Shown: piece after piece, positions 1 through 8,254 of the stretch | How the letters are laid out: every line of letters begins with the position of its first letter | How positions within the stretch are numbered: position 1 is the stretch's first letter | From: a virus | Lineage: Duplodnaviria > Heunggongvirae > Uroviricota > Caudoviricetes | Virus record (IMG/VR): IMGVR_UViG_2529293240_000008 | Span: 1 to 16,973 of that record | DNA: 16,973 bases | Direction: 5' to 3' (one strand) | Position numbers and translations under genes: made by a program | The notes under the pieces: generated by a model | Database searches by the model: none | What the model was told of the DNA's origin: nothing | Seen by the model: only the letters and a program-made list of their open reading frames with translations

Positions 1-335
1 TGTCGAAACATGCGGAGATGGCGAAGGCGTTCGACTATATCCTGAATCACTGGAATGCGCTGAACGAGTTCTGTCGTGACGGCTGGGTGGAAATAGACAA
101 CAACATCGGTGAAAACGCGTTACGATCGGTGGCGGTTGGAAGAAAAAATTATCTCTTTTTCGGCTCAGACAAGGGAGGAGAAAGTGCGGCGATCATCTAC
201 AGTCTGCTGGTCACCTGCAAACAGAACGAAGTGGAGCCGGAGGACTGGTTGCGCGAAGTGATCGAGAAGCTCAATGACTGGCCGTCGAACCAAGTGCATG
301 AACTGCTGCCCTGGAACTTCTCGTCTGTAAAATAA
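1..335 (+). CDS. IS66-family transposase (TnpC-like), C-terminal portion; 5' end lies upstream of the window
   Basis: Frame is open from base 3 to the stop at 333-335 (track ORF 18..335). Product carries the IS66-type C-terminal motif ...IDNNIGENALRSVAVGRKNYLFFGS... Family assignment is from established knowledge of IS66 transposases. Confidence 0.8.
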   Translation, partial: SKHAEMAKAFDYILNHWNALNEFCRDGWVEIDNNIGENALRSVAVGRKNYLFFGSDKGGESAAIIYSLLVTCKQNEVEPEDWLREVIEKLNDWPSNQVHELLPWNFSSVK

Positions 336-367
336 TCCTTACGCTACGTACTTCTCGGGGCGCTTAC
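1..367 (+). mobile_element. Right end of an IS66-family insertion sequence
   Basis: CTTCTCGGGGCGCTTAC at 351-367 is the reverse complement of a GTAAGCG... terminus, about 30 bp after the transposase stop. The IR consensus is recalled from memory, not checked. Confidence 0.55.
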
Positions 368-1150
368 CTTCAAAATGATGGACATTATTTTTGTGGAACC
401 GGAGGTAACAGACCAGACGGTTTAAATGAGCCGGTTACTTTAAACGGGTGATGGACAGCACCTCAAAAGTTCAGATGGATTATATTTGTCTGCAATACCC
501 CGGGTATTTTCGATTTGCGAAATGGATGGAACGACTTGCTCAGGGGATAGCTGATGGAGTTACTGAAGTACCGAAGGACCACTAAAAATCACAGGCCGGG
601 AATTTCGGCGTTTCCGGCGTAGGTGTGCCACGAATGCATCCAGTGGCGTGATGTTGGATGCAATGCTGTATGAGAGATGAGGGGCGGCGTCCAGACGCAG
701 CCTTCAAACCGCCTTGAGCTGCTGCCGTTAAGAGCGGTGGTGGTGAGCGTCAAGGTTAAAAGGCGCAGAACATGTGTCAGGTAGGTGTTGCGGAGATGAA
801 CGAAAGTGAACTGTCGATGAAGTGTCGAAAGGAACCTCTAGGCGATGTCGAAAATGTGCTATCTACGCAGCGCATGACGAGTCCAGCAGATATCTGGTAC
901 TGGCTGGGCGGCATCCGGCATATAGGCAGCATGAACGCAACACAGGCTCTCGTACGGAACGTGGGAACCTGTCGTCTCGATGCTAAGGGAGCGGCGCGGA
1001 GCAGAGGCACTGCAAGCGCCTGAGTACCGATGCGAGACACAGGGGCAGATGGCTTCGTAGTAGTGAGGAAGTGCCTGTAATGGGCATGGAGCGAAGGGGG
1101 TCAGTCGTTGGGGCTGGTTTATCGGTCAACCGGATAGCCGGGAGGAGCCC

Positions 1151-1440
1151 ATGAGTCAGCCAAAGCCGTTCGAGGTCTCTAAGTATGCGGTTTGGAAAGC
1201 ATACCAGCGGGTCAAAGCTAATCGAGGTGCGGCAGGTGTCGATGGGCAGTCAGTCGAGGCGTTTGAGGTTACCAATCGAAGCTATACCCGGTAATGGCGC
1301 AGGTTGACCTGCACTTGGCCAAGTGGATTGCCCGCAAACACAAGCGAGCGCGAGGTAGTCTGGTGCGTGCATTCGAGTGGTTACTGCGAATTCGTCACGA
1401 CTGCCCGACGCTGTTTGCACACTGGTGCTTAGCTTACGAT
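1151..1440 (+). pseudogene. Group II intron reverse transcriptase/maturase remnant
   Basis: ATG at 1151 preceded by GGAGGAG encodes MSQPKPFEVSKYAVWKAYQRVKANRGAAGVDGQSVEAFE..., a typical group II RT N-terminus, then stops after 47 codons. A C-terminal-like tail (...LAKWIARKHKRARGSLVRAFEWLLRIRHDCPTLFAHW...) follows in another frame, so roughly 1.3 kb of RT core is missing. Confidence 0.5.
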
Positions 1441-1460
1441 ACTTGAATGGTTCAACGACA

Positions 1461-1494
1461 AGAGCCGTATGACGCGAGAGTGTCACGTACGGTT
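1461..1494 (+). ncRNA. Group II intron domain V catalytic hairpin
   Basis: GAGCCGTATGACGCGAGAGTGTCACGTACGGTTC: 34 nt, 10-bp helix with AGC triad and G-U wobbles matching the domain V consensus GAGCCGUAUG...CGUACGGUUC. Confidence 0.6.
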
Positions 1495-1608
1495 CCGTGG
1501 GAGCGTAGGGGGGCGGTGCCCCTGCGCCACCCGATATCCCCTTTGAGTGCGGTTACGTCCACAGAGGTAAATGCCGCTGACGCGGCATCTGTAATCTGTT
1601 ACTTTGTG

Positions 1609-1662
1609 TATATCATTTGCTATATATTGTCAATATGCTATTGTTGTAAAGCAAATGATATA
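1609..1662 (+). promoter_or_regulatory. Putative operator/promoter of the TA operon: 12-bp perfect inverted repeat flanking an AT-rich core
   Basis: TATATCATTTGC (1609-1620) and GCAAATGATATA (1651-1662) are exact reverse complements, ending 10 bp before the antitoxin start codon. Confidence 0.4.
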
Positions 1663-1672
1663 CGGAGGCTTT

Positions 1673-2412
<740 letters not shown>

Positions 2413-2466
2413 GGAGTAATGCCGATCAGTTAAGGATCAGTTGACCGATCCAGTGGCTGTGTAAGA

Positions 2467-2499
2467 ATCCGGAAACGCTCACTCGTTTCCGGATTTTTC
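2467..2499 (+). terminator. Rho-independent terminator downstream of the TA operon
   Basis: ATCCGGAAACG-CTCACT-CGTTTCCGGAT perfect 11-bp stem followed by TTTTT. Confidence 0.65.
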
Positions 2500-2584
2500 T
2501 GTGCACAGTAAAAGACCACCGCCTGAGGAGGTGGCTTTTCAGAATGCCCCCTATAAGGGCTGAGGGATCCCCACAAAATTACTG

Positions 2585-2915
2585 CTAATAAACCAGCACC
2601 ATATTTCGGTAGGTTCTGGACAGATGGTTTAGAACTGTGCTCAGTACTGTTCGTCTTAAAATAAGTGGCGAGTGTCGAAGAACATTCTTCGCTAACGTCA
2701 GATATGAGATAACCCGCCGGGATTTAATGCTGTTAGCCTGATATTTCAGGTGTAACCCTTTATTCTCAGCGTGATAACCGAGTAACCACATTACGATAGT
2801 GCTCAACGTTGCCAGCAGACTCAGAACCAGAATTCTTCCTGTTGAACGACTTTTGCTGGCCCGAAGACCAAATCCGAAGCGCCCGTTCTTTTCATCACGA
2901 AAGTTTTGCTCTATC
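2585..2915 (-). pseudogene. Gene fragment of unknown function whose 5' part is cut by the IS600-like insertion
   Basis: Track ORF 2585..2941 (-) takes its start codon and first ~8 codons from inside the IS inverted repeat, so the native N-terminus is missing. Product has a hydrophobic segment (ILVLSLLATLSTIVMWLL); family not recognised. Confidence 0.3.
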
Positions 2916-2979
2916 TGAGGTAGCCTGAGTTTAACGGACACTCCTTCCTGAAATAGAATGGCATCAGAAGGAGCTAATA

Positions 2980-3282
2980 ATGAGCAGAAAAACCCAACGT
3001 TACTCTAAAGAGTTCAAAGCCGAAGCTGTCAGAACGGTTCTTGAAAATCAACTTTCGATCAGTGAAGGCGCTTCCCGATTATCCCTTCCTGAAGGCACTT
3101 TAGGACAATGGGTTACCGCCGCCAGAAAAGGGCTCGGTACTCCTGGTTCCCGCACGGTGGCTGAACTGGAATCTGAAATTCTGCAACTGCGTAAGGCGTT
3201 AAATGAAGCTCGCCTTGAGCGAGATATATTAAAAAAAGCAACAGCGTATTTTGCACAGGAGTCGCTGAAAAATACGCGTTAA
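2980..3282 (+). CDS. IS3-family transposase OrfA (HTH DNA-binding subunit)
   Basis: 100 aa, MSRKTQRYSKEFKAEAVRTVLENQLSISEGASRLSLPEGTLGQWV..., followed by a leucine-zipper-like region. RBS GGAG upstream. Confidence 0.9.
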   Translation: MSRKTQRYSKEFKAEAVRTVLENQLSISEGASRLSLPEGTLGQWVTAARKGLGTPGSRTVAELESEILQLRKALNEARLERDILKKATAYFAQESLKNTR

Positions 3283-3317
3283 TCGAACAATGGCGACAAC
3301 AATTTCCCATTGAAGCG

Positions 3318-4136
3318 ATGTGTCAGGTATTTGGTGTATCCAGGAGCGGTTATTACAACTGGGTACAGCATGAACCCTCAGACAGAAAACAAAGTGATGA
3401 GCGGCTAAAACTGGAGATTAAGGTGGCACATATCCGCACTCGCGAAACATATGGAACCCGGCGGCTCCAGACGGAGCTGGCAGAGAATGGCATCATCGTT
3501 GGTCGTGACCGACTGGCACGTCTTCGTAAGGAGCTAAGGCTACGCTGTAAGCAGAAACGCAAGTTCAGAGCGACTACGAACCCGAACCACAATCTGCCAG
3601 TTGCGCCAAATCTGCTGAACCAGACGTTCGCTCCTACAGCACCAAATCAGGTCTGGGTGGCGGACCTGACGTATGTTGCCACACAGGAGGGATGGTTGTA
3701 CCTCGCTGGCATCAAAGATGTTTATACGTGCGAAATTGTCGGCTACGCCATGGGAGAGCGCATGACAAAAGAGCTGACAGGTAAAGCCCTGTTTATGGCG
3801 CTCAGGAGCCAGCGCCCACCTGCCGGGCTAATCCACCACTCTGATCGAGGTTCACAGTACTGCGCATACGATTACCGGGTCATACAGGAGCAGTCTGGTC
3901 TGAAAACATCAATGTCGCGTAAAGGTAACTGTTACGACAACGCTCCGATGGAAAGCTTCTGGGGAACGCTGAAAAATGAGAGCCTGAGCCACTATCGTTT
4001 TAATAACCGGGATGAAGCCATCTCAGTAATACGGGAATACATTGAGATTTTCTACAATCGTCAGCGTCGTCACTCTCGTCTGGGGAATATCTCCCCGGCA
4101 GCCTTCAGGGAAAAATATCATCAGATGGCTGCTTAA
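3318..4136 (+). CDS. IS3-family transposase OrfB (DDE catalytic domain), normally expressed as an OrfAB fusion by -1 frameshift
   Basis: Contains ...WVADLTYV...HHSDRGSQY...CYDNAPMESFWGTLK... (DDE integrase core). The frame is -1 relative to orfA and the true N-terminus is probably supplied by frameshifting near 3229-3235. Confidence 0.9.
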   Translation: MCQVFGVSRSGYYNWVQHEPSDRKQSDERLKLEIKVAHIRTRETYGTRRLQTELAENGIIVGRDRLARLRKELRLRCKQKRKFRATTNPNHNLPVAPNLLNQTFAPTAPNQVWVADLTYVATQEGWLYLAGIKDVYTCEIVGYAMGERMTKELTGKALFMALRSQRPPAGLIHHSDRGSQYCAYDYRVIQEQSGLKTSMSRKGNCYDNAPMESFWGTLKNESLSHYRFNNRDEAISVIREYIEIFYNRQRRHSRLGNISPAAFREKYHQMAA

Positions 4137-4247
4137 AAAAGAACAAATGGTAGTGTCCGCTATTGCCAGTACACCTCAATTGCCTTTACAACCTCCGGGA
4201 GAAGTTCCTGGTTTGTATAATCAAAGTTATCAACATGGAGAACAGTT

Positions 4248-5911: not shown

Positions 5912-6184
5912 ATGAAAGGAAATGATTACGACAAACTTCGTGCATTAATTGCGCAAAATGCCATAGCGCGAAATCTGGGTGTGACACCGCAAGCGGTGAA
6001 TCAGTGGTTTTCAAAAAGCACAATTCCTGCCCGTTTCGTTTTACGCGTATGTGAAGTAGTTGCATGGAAGGTCACGCCGCATGGCTTAAGGCCAGATCTT
6101 TATCCTCACCCTGAAGATGGAATTCCTGATTCGTTACGCAAAATTTCAAATCCAAGCTTAGCGCACACAGAGGATGAGAAGTGA
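5912..6184 (+). CDS. Cro-like small HTH regulator (YdaS-like)
   Basis: 90 aa; HTH ...IARNLGVTPQAVNQWFSK...; divergent from the cI-like gene. Confidence 0.7.
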   Translation: MKGNDYDKLRALIAQNAIARNLGVTPQAVNQWFSKSTIPARFVLRVCEVVAWKVTPHGLRPDLYPHPEDGIPDSLRKISNPSLAHTEDEK

Positions 6185-6548: not shown

Positions 6549-6661
6549 GTCGAACCTCCTTTGGTTCTTTTGTTTATAGGGATCAAAAGGATAACTGAAG
6601 GATGGTTCGGCACCAACAAGTACGAATGTGCGGAATCTTAAAAGAATTTATCCGTAAGGAG

Positions 6662-7375
6662 ATGGCAGTGAACACCGCAATTTTTAACGACAAAGTATCC
6701 ATGACCAGCGTTGAAATCGCAGAGCTGGTTGGAAGTCAACACGGCAATGTCAGAATATCAATAGAGCGTCTGGCAAAACGCGGGGTGATTCAACTTCCTG
6801 CAATGCAAAAAGTTGAGAACGAACAATCATTTAGCCAAAACAAATTCACAAACGCATATATTTTCGAAGGCGAACAAGGCAAACGCGACAGCATCATTGT
6901 CGTCGCACAACTTTGCCCGGAATTCACTGCCCGCCTGGTAGATCGTTGGCGCGAACTGGAAGAGCAGGTGCGCAAACCAATGAGCGAAATCGAAATGGTT
7001 GCCGCGATGGCTCTTGAAGCCGTTCGTCAGCAAAAACGCCTCGACAAGATGGAAGAAAAAGTCAGTCACGTTACTGAAACTGTCGAACAAATCAAAAGAG
7101 GCACCATCCGCGATGGTTATGCAGGCTACCGTCAGCTGGTGGCGGAAACGGGTATGTCAGATGCGAAATGCCGCAATCTGGTGAACATCTATCAAATTCC
7201 AACTGATACTCACGAATTTCTTACTCCGGACGGATTGTTGTCACGCCGCGCAATTGTTGCAGTGGAACCGTTTATGGCTGCTTTCCATCGTATGATGAGC
7301 GAAGCGGAACCGAGAGGAACTCGTTGGTATCACCCGAAAATGGGGCTGTTCCAGGCGCTGGGCTGGCAGGGGTGA
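6662..7375 (+). CDS. Rha/AntA-family phage regulatory (antirepressor-like) protein
   Basis: N-terminal ...TSVEIAELVGSQHGNVRISIERLAK... matches the Rha/AntA N-domain pattern. Start is uncertain (ATG 6662, GTG 6668 or ATG 6602); AAGGAG at 6656-6661 fits the GTG best. Confidence 0.7.
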   Translation: MAVNTAIFNDKVSMTSVEIAELVGSQHGNVRISIERLAKRGVIQLPAMQKVENEQSFSQNKFTNAYIFEGEQGKRDSIIVVAQLCPEFTARLVDRWRELEEQVRKPMSEIEMVAAMALEAVRQQKRLDKMEEKVSHVTETVEQIKRGTIRDGYAGYRQLVAETGMSDAKCRNLVNIYQIPTDTHEFLTPDGLLSRRAIVAVEPFMAAFHRMMSEAEPRGTRWYHPKMGLFQALGWQG

Positions 7376-7394
7376 CGATGTTTACGGGTAATTT

Positions 7395-7568
7395 ATGCAA
7401 GTCCTCAATCGCTGGTTCCGTGACGGAAGGGGGCGTCGTGTTCACGTTATACGCTGGGAGCCTGAAACACAGCGGGTTATTTATCTGCGTGATGGTTATC
7501 CATATGAATGTTTCAGCCCGTTGTGGTTGTTCAGGCGTGATTTTGTTGAGTGCGAAGCGCCGCCATAA
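7395..7568 (+). CDS. Candidate small ORF (57 aa, Arg/Trp-rich)
   Basis: ATG at 7395 to TAA at 7566-7568 (MQVLNRWFRDGRGRRVHVIRWEPETQRVIYLRDGYPYECFSPLWLFRRDFVECEAPP); no clear RBS; below the ORF-track size cutoff. Confidence 0.2.
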   Translation: MQVLNRWFRDGRGRRVHVIRWEPETQRVIYLRDGYPYECFSPLWLFRRDFVECEAPP

Positions 7569-7589
7569 TAACGGCGCGATAATGGAAAT

Positions 7590-7898
7590 TTACACGAAGC
7601 GGATCTGGAGTTTTTTCCCTGTTGCGCGTGCAAATTTTTTCAGTGTGGCAAATGATGGTCCGCTGACACCTGAGGCAAGATTGCTTTCCATTCTGGTGAT
7701 GGCGGTTGCTTTGGTACCCATGCGTTCAGCAACTTCAGCCTGGGTGAGACCAGCTTCTTTGCGTGCGGCCAGCATTTCATCAAGCAGTGCGAACTCGTCG
7801 GCGATGGCGTCGTATTCTGCTTTAAAAGCCGGGTCATCCATCCATTTAGCTGCCATTTCATCGTGTGTCATGATTGGTGGGTTACGTTTACCAGTCAT
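7590..7898 (-). CDS. HigA-like antitoxin (XRE-type HTH)
   Basis: 102 aa; ...AGLTQAEVAERMGTKATAITRMESN... HTH; GGAGG RBS 7 nt upstream; start overlaps the stop of the upstream toxin gene by 11 bp. Confidence 0.75.
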   Translation of the reverse strand: MTGKRNPPIMTHDEMAAKWMDDPAFKAEYDAIADEFALLDEMLAARKEAGLTQAEVAERMGTKATAITRMESNLASGVSGPSFATLKKFARATGKKLQIRFV

Positions 7899-8217
7899 GC
7901 TTAACCTCCTTCATTCTGGTTTCAGCTTTTTTACGCTCAGCTGGTGGAGTTTTTTGAGTTTTCTTGATGAAGCTGTGCAGCATGATGATGCGCTTCCCTG
8001 TCAGTGTGCAGTAAAAAACGCGGGCAATGCCATCGCTGCCTTTAATCCGAAGCTCAAAAAGCCCATCACCAAAGGCGCTGGTGTGAGGTTCTCCGAGATT
8101 GCTGCCGTATACCTTCATGCGTTCAACAAGATGCTGGTATCTGGCACGCATACTCAATGGAAGCTGATCGACCTCCAGTCGGACCTCTTCACTGTAGTAT
8201 TCGATAGTGTAGTTCAT
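7888..8217 (-). CDS. HigB/RelE-superfamily toxin (Gp49-like addiction-module killer protein)
   Basis: ...LGEPHTSAFGDGLFELRIKGSDGIARVFYCTLTGKRIIMLHSFIKKTQKTP... is the characteristic HigB/Gp49 pattern. Toxin-first order typical of higBA. Start is uncertain: the track extends to 8253 with a TTG; Met at 8217 gives 109 aa. Confidence 0.75.
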   Translation of the reverse strand: MNYTIEYYSEEVRLEVDQLPLSMRARYQHLVERMKVYGSNLGEPHTSAFGDGLFELRIKGSDGIARVFYCTLTGKRIIMLHSFIKKTQKTPPAERKKAETRMKEVKHDW

Positions 8218-8254
8218 ACAGCAAAACATAACAAAATCGTTATATCTGCACAAT

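Follow-up and report, generated by a model that had tools for sequence, protein, structure and literature searches.

The published traits of toxins of the Gp49 family (PF05973) are mRNA degradation, ribosome dependence and a toxin-first gene order (PMC11980606, Table 1). The founders of the family are gp49-gp48 of phage N15 and Tad-Ata of the Paracoccus plasmid pAMI2, which are described as stabilising in the account of Dziewit et al. (2007) given in PMC5906591. Basic and aromatic active-site residues have been identified through mutation in HigB of Streptococcus pneumoniae and in HigB1 of Mycobacterium tuberculosis (PMC7984235, PMC9098466). The helix-turn-helix (HTH) of S. pneumoniae HigA binds palindromes of its own promoter, and the toxin active site is not occluded by the antitoxin (PMC7984235). 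HigB1 has been demonstrated to cleave mRNA at the ribosomal A site; HigB2 and HigB3 of M. tuberculosis, also of the Gp49 family, were non-toxic in published assays, so that family membership is no guarantee of activity (PMC9098466). The E. coli HigBAC system is a precedent for abortive infection against phages by a toxin of this type (bioRxiv 10.1101/2024.02.24.581848). HigBA2 of Acinetobacter baumannii has RNase activity, and HigA represses its own operon, HigB acting as corepressor; the same work called it unknown what determines the toxin:antitoxin ratio in toxin-first operons (PMC5906591).

Here we analyse a pair of this kind in a 16,973-nt stretch of viral DNA (the window), where it lies in the early region of a decayed λ-like (lambdoid) prophage remnant with IS elements at its bounds. 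The N15 pair belongs to the same Pfam family, with gp49 45% identical to the present toxin over residues 15-105; both pairs are borne by temperate phages and, as in Tad-Ata, the toxin gene comes first, the XRE-HTH gene second, and the two are adjacent or overlapping. N15 gp49 differs in lacking the first ~14 residues and in having a conventional AGGAGG leader, and N15 is a linear plasmid prophage, for which stabilisation has an obvious meaning, whereas the present element is an integrated remnant. S. pneumoniae HigBA (6AF3/6AF4; PMC7984235) is the best relative of solved structure for both partners, sharing the long C-terminal toxin helix, and equivalents of HigB R68, R73, F90 and K92 are kept here, although identity over the structural alignment is about 20%; moreover it is a Gram-positive chromosomal system with four palindromes, while the present locus has just one, of 16 bp, next to the start codon. 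HigB1 (7AWK, 7NBU; PMC9098466), from the TAC system, has a Gp49-like fold, but in TAC and in HigBAC a SecB-like chaperone is encoded by a third gene and the antitoxin bears a chaperone-addiction tail. The present pair has neither, as a convergent DUF4222 ORF lies 3' of the antitoxin gene and the antitoxin ends with its HTH domain at 102 aa. HigBA2 shares the Gp49-domain toxin and the reverse gene order, but is plasmid-borne (PMC5906591). The Gp49-HTH pairs of Tn3-family transposons are of the same TA class and also sit beside the regulatory region of core genes of a mobile element; the element and the neighbouring promoters are different, and coupling is unproven there too (PMC7157771). A literature search for HigBA in lambdoid or Stx prophages, or for leaderless higB, found nothing specific.

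The gene pair

The preliminary description had placed a toxin gene followed by an antitoxin gene on the strand opposite to the surrounding early-region genes, back to back with the promoter of its module 1, here the first isrK/C4 module. Both ORFs, their order and this position are confirmed (Table 1). The two genes overlap by 11 nt on the same strand, the antitoxin ATG lying within the toxin coding sequence (ATGACTGGTAA); counted from the TTG considered earlier, the toxin ORF would run from 8253 to 7888. The toxin-first order holds in all related loci examined, both ORFs are intact in 47 of 50 related prophage loci, and the 102-aa antitoxin ORF is intact in 49 of the 50. The toxin ATG is changed to ATA in alleles PhiR5_2, L129 and L130, and the toxin gene is frameshifted in one allele, L132. 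Across all 109 codons the toxin differs from its E. coli A8 homologue by 26 synonymous and no non-synonymous changes, and sequence comparison shows both ORFs to be under purifying selection. A scan for intrinsic terminators 3' of the antitoxin gene found none; a 6-bp GC hairpin at 7557-7577 was rejected as a terminator, since it has no T tract and spans the cassette boundary.

Table 1. Coordinates in the window of the TA cassette, its signals and the adjoining isrK/C4 module
Feature	Position	Strand	Description
TA cassette (moron)	7566-8254		689 bp; present here, absent from otherwise collinear TA-less Stx phages
Antitoxin gene	7898-7590	minus	102 aa; N-terminal segment and XRE-type HTH, residues about 40-98
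Toxin gene	8217-7888	minus	109 aa; ATG 8217; stop TAA 7890-7888; Gp49/HigB(Tad)-type, RelE/ParE superfamily
Antitoxin Shine-Dalgarno AAGGAGG	7905-7911	minus	6 nt 5' of the antitoxin ATG, within the toxin gene 3' end
Candidate TA -10, TATGTT	8225-8230	minus	7 nt before ATG 8217; 4/6 consensus; contains ATG 8229
Palindrome ATAAC-N6-GTTAT	8228-8243		Candidate operator for antitoxin or TA complex; in every cassette context
Candidate TA -35, TTGTGC	8248-8253	minus	17-nt spacer; 3/6 consensus; TTG-N7-ATAAC spacing fixed
isrK/C4 module candidate promoter	8258-8286	plus	-35 TTGATT 8258-8263, -10 TACACT 8281-8286
isrK	8293-8369	plus	RF01394, 61.8 bits, above gathering; starts 7 nt after the -10
C4 antisense RNA	8394-8481	plus	RF01695, 80.1 bits, above gathering
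Short Rha-domain ORF	8536-8898	plus	Phage_pRha match; 3' of isrK and C4

Family, fold and active-site residues

The assignment of the pair to the Gp49/HigB and XRE-HTH families, made earlier from the letters alone, is borne out by profile searches, whose matches lie well outside the range of chance. PF05973 matches the toxin at E 6.4e-26 (90.7 bits against a cut-off of 23.9; profile positions 2-90 of 90), and HTH_3 (PF01381) matches the antitoxin at E 4.9e-11 (42.9 bits, cut-off 23). PHROG 2523 matches the toxin over its full length (E 1.5e-45), and PHROG 1373 the antitoxin (E 1.4e-35). NCBIfam matches for the pair were sub-threshold only, none of the antitoxin models reaching its cut-off with the antitoxin. 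At E <= 1e-5 the toxin has 3191 homologues, and all those listed carry PF05973. The best PDB relative of the toxin is the S. pneumoniae HigB/HigA complex 6AF3 (E 1.5e-5; profile E 1.2e-8), and the best PDB sequence match of the antitoxin is chain B, HigA, of the same entry (residues 15-98, E 4.3e-4), so that a single solved TA complex supplies the matches of both proteins, one chain for each.

The AF2 model of the toxin (pLDDT 91.6; strands within residues 46-84, helix 92-108) predicts a RelE-type fold and, at the C terminus, the long helix typical of Gp49 toxins. The top Foldseek matches of the model, at TM 0.71-0.77 taken together, are S. pneumoniae HigB 6AF4/6AF3 (E 1.9e-6, TM 0.74-0.77) and M. 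tuberculosis HigB1 7AWK/7NBU, of which 7NBU is ribosome-bound (E 8.6e-5, TM 0.76). Toxin residues E55, R57, R66, F83, K85, Q88 and K89 align with functional residues of these characterised relatives, namely E66/R68/R73/F90/K92 of S. pneumoniae HigB and E66/R68/R77/F93/K95/Q98/K99 of HigB1, whose catalytic K95 corresponds to K85. All of these but Q88 are invariant across the 30 homologues aligned.

The label HigBA-like, given to the pair in the preliminary description, thus needs qualification. It stands in the Gp49/Tad sense, that is, of N15 gp49, S. pneumoniae HigB and M. tuberculosis HigB1. It does not stand for the classical HigB of Rts1/Proteus vulgaris or V. cholerae HigB-1. Those systems have in common with the present pair a RelE-type fold, toxin-first order, an HTH antitoxin and ribosome-dependent mRNA cleavage, the last expected here from relatives, yet the classical profiles PF05015 and PF09907 give nothing with the toxin at E <= 0.01, and Foldseek matches them at fold level only (E 0.18-0.3, TM about 0.5). 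The name HigB is shared; the family is not.

Toxin start and promoter region

Where does the toxin begin? The choice had been left between a TTG and an ATG, with no obvious ribosome-binding site for the latter. Comparative evidence now settles the start at ATG 8217, and the sequence upstream of it indeed matches AGGAGGT over fewer than 4 nt. The TTG at 8253 was rejected, as it forms the first three bases of a probable -35 hexamer at a conserved position. A further in-frame codon, ATG 8229, is present in most alleles and is used by some gene callers (113-aa entries); it was rejected because it lies in the candidate -10 and is lost in two alleles, L088 (ATC) and L118 (ATA). A length of 109-111 aa prevails among the distant homologues that were listed and aligned, all of which, upstream-extended calls aside, begin MNYTI; 72 of 78 non-redundant toxin loci start with ATG. 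On this comparison the conserved form of the toxin is the full 109 aa. Close relatives are annotated in reference records from internal methionines instead, giving toxins of 76 aa (E. coli A8, PhiR5_2) and 87 aa (POCJ13); the absence of a ribosome-binding site at the true start is the probable reason.

The 37 nt 5' of the toxin have a conserved layout, TTG-N7-ATAAC-N6-GTTATnTT-N7-ATG, which is kept in every genomic context. The -35 hexamer varies (TTGTGC, TTGTAC, TTGCGC, TTGAAT, TTGCGA), and the distance from TATnTT to the ATG is fixed at 7 nt of variable sequence. In the wider clade good -10 hexamers (TATAAT, TATGAT, TATATT) are found 6-7 nt 5' of the start codon. Of 76 non-redundant loci analysed, reaching down to about 40% toxin identity, 72 had a detected palindrome, and in 52 of these it is a related one centred at -16 to -18 from the start. 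The palindrome is the sole exact copy in the window, where one other match to the pattern has one mismatch, as expected by chance. No LexA box was found on reading the intergenic sequence of the window. In a consensus promoter scan of 7450-8450 neither the TA nor the isrK promoter reached threshold, so both rest on conservation and not on consensus strength.

Since the candidate promoter and operator palindrome abut a start codon that has no Shine-Dalgarno sequence, the geometry indicates that the toxin mRNA is probably leaderless or nearly so. The antitoxin is served differently: a Shine-Dalgarno match of at least 4 nt precedes it in 64 of 71 related loci, against 3 of 76 for the toxin. Because N15 gp49 has an ordinary leader, the layout is specific to the present clade. 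Folding of the putative leaderless transcript was uninformative (z-score 0.11).

Cassette boundaries and distribution

The pair occupies a discrete cassette. In the Stx2a phage Stx2_14040 the end of the DUF4222 gene joins ATATTGATTCTGCAA directly, which corresponds to the window from 8255 onward, and the internal repeat of the module likewise begins at 8255; POCJ13 shares 7555-8245 only. The sequence upstream of 8254 is wholly different among the contexts compared (isrK type 1, isrK type 2, POCJ13 and Edwardsiella). As the cassette ends 1 nt past the TA -35, a self-sufficient cassette promoter fits only if transcription starts close to the ATG. Among 5426 complete E. coli genomes only 40 have a match to the TA DNA, 19 of them with at least 80% coverage, so that this DNA is dispensable. 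A megablast search of PLSDB gave no match, and a plasmid origin was rejected. The clade of toxins beginning MNYTI ranges over Enterobacteriaceae, Burkholderiales, Chlorobi and Campylobacterales.

The neighbouring isrK/C4 module

In enterobacterial prophages the cassette nearly always has an isrK/C4 antirepressor module as its back-to-back neighbour. The neighbour is of the P1 immI-like c4/isrK type of antirepressor control, and c4-a1b1 matches occur in related loci. In the window the isrK/C4/Rha module is repeated at 8911-9755, with RF01394 and RF01695 each found twice and each set followed by a Phage_pRha ORF; the isrK promoter is identical in the second copy (8914-8942). From ATG 8217 to the module -35 is 40 nt, as had been estimated. 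Only 4 bp separate the two -35 hexamers, and the start sites suggested by the layout are 76 bp apart. The TA palindrome lies 15 bp from the isrK -35 and overlaps neither element of that promoter. Of 49 close prophage loci, at least 39 have C4 on the other strand at a constant offset, and 42 have isrK and/or C4, counts to be read with the proviso that prophage loci are non-independent samples. The arrangement persists where the RNAs are at 73-83% identity and the toxin at 73%, and a second sequence family of the module has the same back-to-back geometry (TTGAAT / 6 bp / TTGACG).

A 10-bp perfect palindrome, CAATATATTG (8251-8260), was rejected as a shared operator: it is made up of a pair of divergent, abutting TTG motifs, it extends across the cassette boundary, and its sequence is not conserved (CAACACATTG, CAATACATTG and other families). 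Co-regulation of, or interference between, the TA and isrK-module promoters, as raised in the preliminary description, is a conjecture.

Discussion

The pair is an uncharacterised member of a known TA family, whose toxicity, role and regulation are putative. It is very probably a two-gene type II TA operon, Gp49 (Tad/'HigB') followed by XRE-HTH (Ata/'HigA'), and a self-contained accessory cassette. By analogy with characterised relatives, the toxin would enter the ribosomal A site, cleave mRNA and arrest translation, and the N-terminal segment of the antitoxin would bind the toxin. An antitoxin dimer, alone or with the toxin as corepressor, would bind the palindrome between the -35 and -10 and repress the operon, a model patterned on the autorepression of A. 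baumannii HigBA2 (PMC5906591). The geometry suggests that transcription starts at, or a few nt from, the toxin AUG, giving an mRNA that has little or no leader and lacks a Shine-Dalgarno sequence ahead of the toxin. The toxin would then be translated poorly and the antitoxin well, so that the antitoxin is kept in excess even in a toxin-first operon. What might the pair do in a lysogen? Prophage retention through addiction, abortive-infection defence against other phages, or both may be served, and a function in abortive infection or stabilisation is a reasonable inference from relatives. A search of PADLOC-DB 2.0 gave no whole-system match to the pair and so lends a defence role no direct support; apart from weak matches to generic HTH models, it showed only that residues 49-99 partially match NsnC at its C-terminal end (E 2.8e-9). 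We consider addiction slightly more likely than abortive infection.

Could the operon be transcribed instead from farther upstream, within the isrK module? The toxin would then be initiated independently of a Shine-Dalgarno sequence in an A/U-rich setting, and the palindrome, no longer part of the promoter, would serve as an operator within the 5' UTR or else act in translation. Such a leadered operon deserves serious weight, as the candidate hexamers are weak and escape the consensus scan, leaderless mRNAs are uncommon in E. coli and rare in enterobacteria, and an upstream ATG is available in most alleles and used by some callers. We nevertheless think it unlikely, because the layout from the TTG to the ATG is fixed where everything upstream of 8254 changes with context, because the last 7 nt are constrained in length and not in sequence, because ATG 8229 can be lost, and because the wider clade places good -10 hexamers just before the start codon. 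A rather different doubt concerns the toxin itself, which might be catalytically weak or non-toxic in its host, the pair being an autoregulated HTH regulator with its partner, or a decaying remnant. Non-toxic relatives are known (PMC9098466), the prophage is a remnant between IS elements, and a few alleles have lost the toxin start codon or frame. This is quite improbable, given that the mapped functional residues are all kept and nearly all invariant, that the 109 codons have been under purifying selection, that nearly all loci are intact, and that the antitoxin, with its strong Shine-Dalgarno sequence, is always co-retained.

The pair might also be tied to the isrK/C4-Rha (P1 immI-like) module, the antitoxin or divergent transcription modulating the isrK promoter, or the reverse, so that the TA genes would form part of a prophage immunity or induction circuit rather than an independent moron. 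The closeness of the two promoters, the constancy of the C4 offset despite divergence and the like geometry in the second module family all suggest this, as does the comparable placing of Gp49-HTH pairs beside the res promoters of Tn3-family transposons (PMC7157771). On the other side, the only element that travels with the cassette in all contexts is the palindrome in the TA promoter, clear of the isrK hexamers and without a second copy, and the junction palindrome is explained by its two TTG motifs. The second module copy and the TA-less Stx phages have the same isrK promoter without the TA genes, Gifsy-1 isrK is preceded by antQ and not by a TA pair (PMC4825925), and most relatives of the flank lack the pair (the flank matches 589 records, the TA DNA about 40). 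We therefore consider such coupling unlikely, and retain the reading of the pair as a self-contained TA cassette.

A bolder proposal can be added, which we hold tentatively and rate somewhat short of even: that toxin-first operons of the MNYTI clade are leaderless, with the promoter spacer and -10 doubling as the antitoxin operator, and that in enterobacterial prophages the cassette has become fixed back to back with isrK/C4, the promoters perhaps interacting. If so, a leaderless toxin set against a Shine-Dalgarno-driven antitoxin would be a built-in way for reverse TA operons to hold antitoxin in excess, and, if confirmed, a simple answer to the ratio question posed in PMC5906591. The TA pair and the immI-like isrK/C4 promoter would likewise make up one lysogeny-expressed island, its two promoters possibly influencing each other.

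The family assignment as such is a routine annotation result, automatic pipelines already calling the toxin a 'RelE/ParE family toxin'. Of wider use is that Stx and related phages either have the cassette or lack it, a clean presence/absence polymorphism next to antirepressor control RNAs, which makes effects of a TA moron on prophage stability, induction and superinfection easy to test.

A 524-aa plus-strand ORF (7324-8898) runs antisense to the TA genes. We reject it as a coding frame: only 16 of 31 distinct alleles keep it open, the others having 1-7 stops, and it is open because the TA genes are nearly without TTA, CTA and TCA codons.

Family, fold and active site

The pair is an uncharacterised and ordinary member of the Gp49/HTH type II toxin-antitoxin (TA) family, already recognised by automatic annotation. 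New here are the toxin start codon, the cassette boundaries and a candidate operator and promoter, along with probable leaderless expression of the toxin and a conserved, probably non-obligatory adjacency to isrK/C4. The preliminary description had proposed a Gp49/HigB-like toxin with an XRE-HTH partner, and HMM searches agree: Pfam Gp49 (PF05973) matches the toxin over its whole profile (E 6.4e-26), and HTH_3 matches the antitoxin (E 4.9e-11). Toxin residues 1-109 align with positions 1-108 of PHROG 2523. Compared by sequence with the PDB, each protein finds its best relative in a different chain of a single complex, S. pneumoniae HigB/HigA 6AF3 (E 1.2e-8 in a profile search). The AlphaFold model of the toxin (30 homologues, pLDDT 91.6) starts with two helices, continues into a four-stranded sheet and ends in a long C-terminal helix. 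Foldseek places S. pneumoniae HigB and M. tuberculosis HigB1, including its ribosome-bound form, at the top ranks, whereas classical Proteus HigB is matched only at E >= 0.18. N15 gp49, the source of the family name, is 45% identical to the window toxin over residues 15-105.

[quoted passage not shown] A recent survey assigns ribosome-dependent degradation of mRNA and a toxin-first gene order to the PF05973 toxins (PMC11980606, Table 1). In A. baumannii, HigBA2 of this family is an RNase; HigA represses its operon, HigB serving as corepressor (PMC5906591). Two M. tuberculosis Gp49 toxins were non-toxic (PMC9098466). By analogy, the toxin would be a ribosome-dependent mRNA endonuclease, and the antitoxin would both inhibit it and repress the operon.

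Toxin start and upstream layout

Where does the toxin begin? Sequence comparison places the start at ATG 8217. Most of the 120 top-ranking homologues measure 109-111 aa, and MNYTI.YY begins all but two of the 30 aligned, those two carrying upstream-extended gene calls. Relative to E. coli A8, 26 codons differ, every one synonymously (5 of 5 within codons 1-33), so the N-terminus is coding. Two other starts were rejected: ATG 8229 is ATC or ATA in two alleles, and TTG 8253 coincides with a conserved promoter-like position. RefSeq/GenBank begin the toxins of relatives at internal methionines (Met34, 76 aa, in A8 and PhiR5_2; Met23, 87 aa, in POCJ13); in all three the full 109-codon frame is intact and its product is identical or nearly so to the window toxin. 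These public calls are probably too short, systematic N-terminal truncations that stem from the missing RBS. The antitoxin ATG lies 11 nt within the toxin CDS (ATGACTGGTAA). In the PhiR5_2-type allele (L003, L129, L130) the toxin start is ATA, the remaining ORF and the antitoxin being intact; the toxin could be silenced, or an in-frame ATG 12 nt upstream could be used instead. At another locus, L132, the toxin is frameshifted.

Whatever the genomic context, every distinct allele carries TTG-N7-ATAAC-N6-GTTAT(G/C/A)TT-N7-ATG upstream of the toxin, the last 7 nt being fixed in length and variable in sequence. This geometry recurs across a wider set of 76 non-redundant loci, whose toxins are as little as about 38% identical. 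Of the 72 loci where a palindrome was detected, 52 have it centred at -16 to -18, its sequence varying by lineage (TAACA..TGTTA, ATAGCATATATGCTAT, GTTATCA..TGATAAC). In 42/76 the best -10-like hexamer sits 6-7 nt away from the start codon. Shine-Dalgarno (SD) matches of 4 nt or more stand before the toxin at 3/76 loci, versus 64/71 for the antitoxin; ATG is the start in 72 of 78 non-redundant loci. A promoter consensus scan reported nothing for the TA promoter region, and the candidate hexamers are weak. Because the cassette ends one base past the -35, a cassette-borne promoter fits only with transcription starting at about the AUG. We infer that the toxin mRNA is probably leaderless or near-leaderless, that the operon may be repressed through the palindrome, and that translation would favour the antitoxin, whose SD is AAGGAGG (7911-7905). 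N15 gp49, in contrast, has an ordinary AGGAGG leader, so the SD-less layout is specific to the window-toxin clade. How toxin-first systems set the toxin:antitoxin ratio is stated as unknown (PMC5906591), and our literature search, in a limited library, found no description of this layout.

Features of the window and of related loci
Feature	Position	Strand	Remark
IS66 fragment	18-335
GNAT acetyltransferase ORF	1927-2412
IS3-family element	2980-4136
S24/HTH CI-like repressor	5784-5089	minus	Pfam
Cro/YdaS-like ORF	5912-6184		Pfam 'YdaS_toxin' E 1.2e-12, weak P22_Cro match
Rha protein	6602-7375		Pfam
DUF4222	7395-7568		Pfam
Antitoxin ORF	7898-7590	minus	102 aa
Toxin ORF	8253/8217-7888	minus	121 aa from TTG, 109 aa from ATG
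Toxin start ATG	8217	minus
Candidate -10 TATGTT	8230-8225	minus
Palindrome ATAAC-N6-GTTAT	8243-8228		candidate operator
Spacer	8247-8231	minus	17 nt
Candidate -35 TTGTGC	8253-8248	minus
Candidate isrK promoter	8258-8263; 8281-8286		-35-like TTGATT; -10-like TACACT; identical in copy 2
isrK	8293-8369; 8949-9025		copies 1 and 2; Rfam
C4 antisense RNA	8394-8481; 9050-9137		copies 1 and 2; Rfam
Rha-domain ORF, module 1	8536-8898		120 aa, below Pfam cut-off
Rha-domain ORF, module 2	9192-9755		187 aa
Two Rha-type ORFs, DnaC-like loader, DnaB, then Q	Q 13663-14079		beyond the pair; Pfam
tRNA Met-CAT, Arg-TCT, Thr-TGT, Gly-TCC	14279-14589		tightly packed, just downstream of Q
DUF6538 ORF			past the tRNA genes
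IS3-family transposase	15328-16233	minus	after the DUF6538 ORF
Annotated short toxin CDSs	L001 8489-8719; L002 6334-6597; L003 5334-5564		A8; POCJ13; PhiR5_2
sRNA-Xcc1 matches	L002 8618-8701; L106 1964-2047; L004 3586-3671

The cassette and the isrK/C4 module

The Stx2a phage Stx2_14040 is collinear with the window on both flanks and lacks the pair. Its DUF4222 gene end joins straight onto ATATTGATTCTGCAA, the sequence at window position 8255, and the insert is therefore 7566-8254, 689 bp. The DUF4222 stop codon in the window comes from the cassette, and the internal repeat defining the two isrK/C4 modules also starts at 8255. In TA-less phages the DUF4222 ORF reads in frame across isrK/C4 into the Rha ORF, a reading annotated in Stx2_14040 (L165 1479-2312) as a single 277-aa 'regulatory protein'. 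Of 5426 complete E. coli genomes, 40 match the TA DNA, 19 of them with coverage of 80% or more; every match is chromosomal, the best at 94.6% identity, and PLSDB plasmids gave no match. The identical toxin protein is recorded in 100 or more blocks of an assembly collection, with uniform synteny (Rha/Ash, divergent Gp49-HTH, convergent DUF4222) in 8/8 inspected places. A 6-bp GC hairpin (GCGCCG...CGGCGC, 9-nt loop, 7557-7577) spans the left boundary of the cassette, where the DUF4222 and antitoxin genes converge; with no T tract on either strand, it would be a weak bidirectional terminator at most.

Segments 8255-8898 and 8911-9755 are two tandem P1 immI-like antirepressor control modules, each with isrK, C4 and a Rha-domain ORF, and their first 79 nt are 92% identical. 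The changes that separate their C4 stems look compensatory. Gene callers and RefSeq fuse the RNA region into long 'Rha' CDSs, e.g. 8895-9755. As expected, isrK starts 7 nt after its candidate promoter. The back-to-back arrangement of the pair with the module 1 promoter, noted in the preliminary description, is borne out: the gap between the -35 hexamers is 4 bp, and that between the inferred start sites 76 bp.

We compared 49 close IMG/VR prophage loci, which are mutually related samples. C4 occupies the opposite strand at an unchanged offset in at least 39 of them, and isrK and/or C4 is present in 42, the remaining seven giving no match to either. Representatives of the two sequence types that make up those seven carry an sRNA-Xcc1 match (RF02221, Rfam) instead. 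In the Edwardsiella type it lies about 330-415 nt upstream of the toxin, and in the POCJ13 type about 2 kb off, beside Ant. Its place, upstream of the antirepressor or of the TA, is equivalent, and this RNA may be the local counterpart of C4 where the TA does not adjoin isrK/C4. A diverged second sequence family of the module retains the back-to-back geometry. The linkage is real and old, though seen in loci that are related to one another; the adjacency is conserved but probably non-obligatory.

Are the TA and isrK promoters functionally coupled? It is possible, since two RNA polymerases would have overlapping upstream regions, but we consider it unlikely: the candidate operator does not overlap the isrK promoter, no second copy of it was found in the window, and the linkage is one-sided, the module occurring without the TA in copy 2, in TA-less Stx phages and in Gifsy-1, where antQ lies upstream (PMC4825925). 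A simpler reading is that both units would be expressed in the lysogen, and that a single cassette insertion at this boundary would later have spread by recombination with neighbours.

Prophage setting and possible roles

As first described, the pair lies in the early region on the strand opposite to its neighbours: both ORFs are minus, and the surrounding Pfam-named phage genes are plus, the CI-like repressor excepted. The position of the Cro/YdaS-like ORF, divergent to that repressor, suggests a Cro-type regulator despite the family name. A 524-codon stop-free plus frame (7324-8898), antisense across the TA locus and through isrK/C4 into the short Rha ORF, is not a gene; of 31 distinct alleles only 16 keep the frame open, which makes it a codon-usage artefact. 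The site just downstream of Q is where tRNAs and stx sit in Stx phages. The prophage is a remnant, since IS66, IS3 and group II intron pieces fill 1-4170 and a further IS3 element lies beyond the tRNA genes. The intron domains (Rfam; D1-D4 at 669-782, 81.8 bits; D5/D6 at 1460-1535, 57.8 bits) sit among the IS66 fragment, the GNAT ORF and the IS3-family element. The gap of about 680 nt between them has insufficient room for an intron-encoded reverse transcriptase; the intron is either ORF-less or deleted.

What might the pair do? By analogy, stabilisation or addiction would be consistent with its relatives, Tad-Ata and N15 gp49/48 being so described in work cited in PMC5906591. The persistence of an intact pair in an IS-eroded remnant is compatible with addiction but is not evidence for it. 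Abortive infection would likewise be consistent with relatives, having been demonstrated for E. coli HigBAC (bioRxiv 10.1101/2024.02.24.581848), which, unlike the window locus, has a chaperone gene. Among the defence systems catalogued in PADLOC, the locus has no match apart from a partial one to NsnC. There, toxin residues 49-99 (window 8073-7921) align with NsnC positions 233-283 of 293 (E 2.8e-9), which suggests that the C-terminal end of this defence protein is a Gp49/RelE-like domain.
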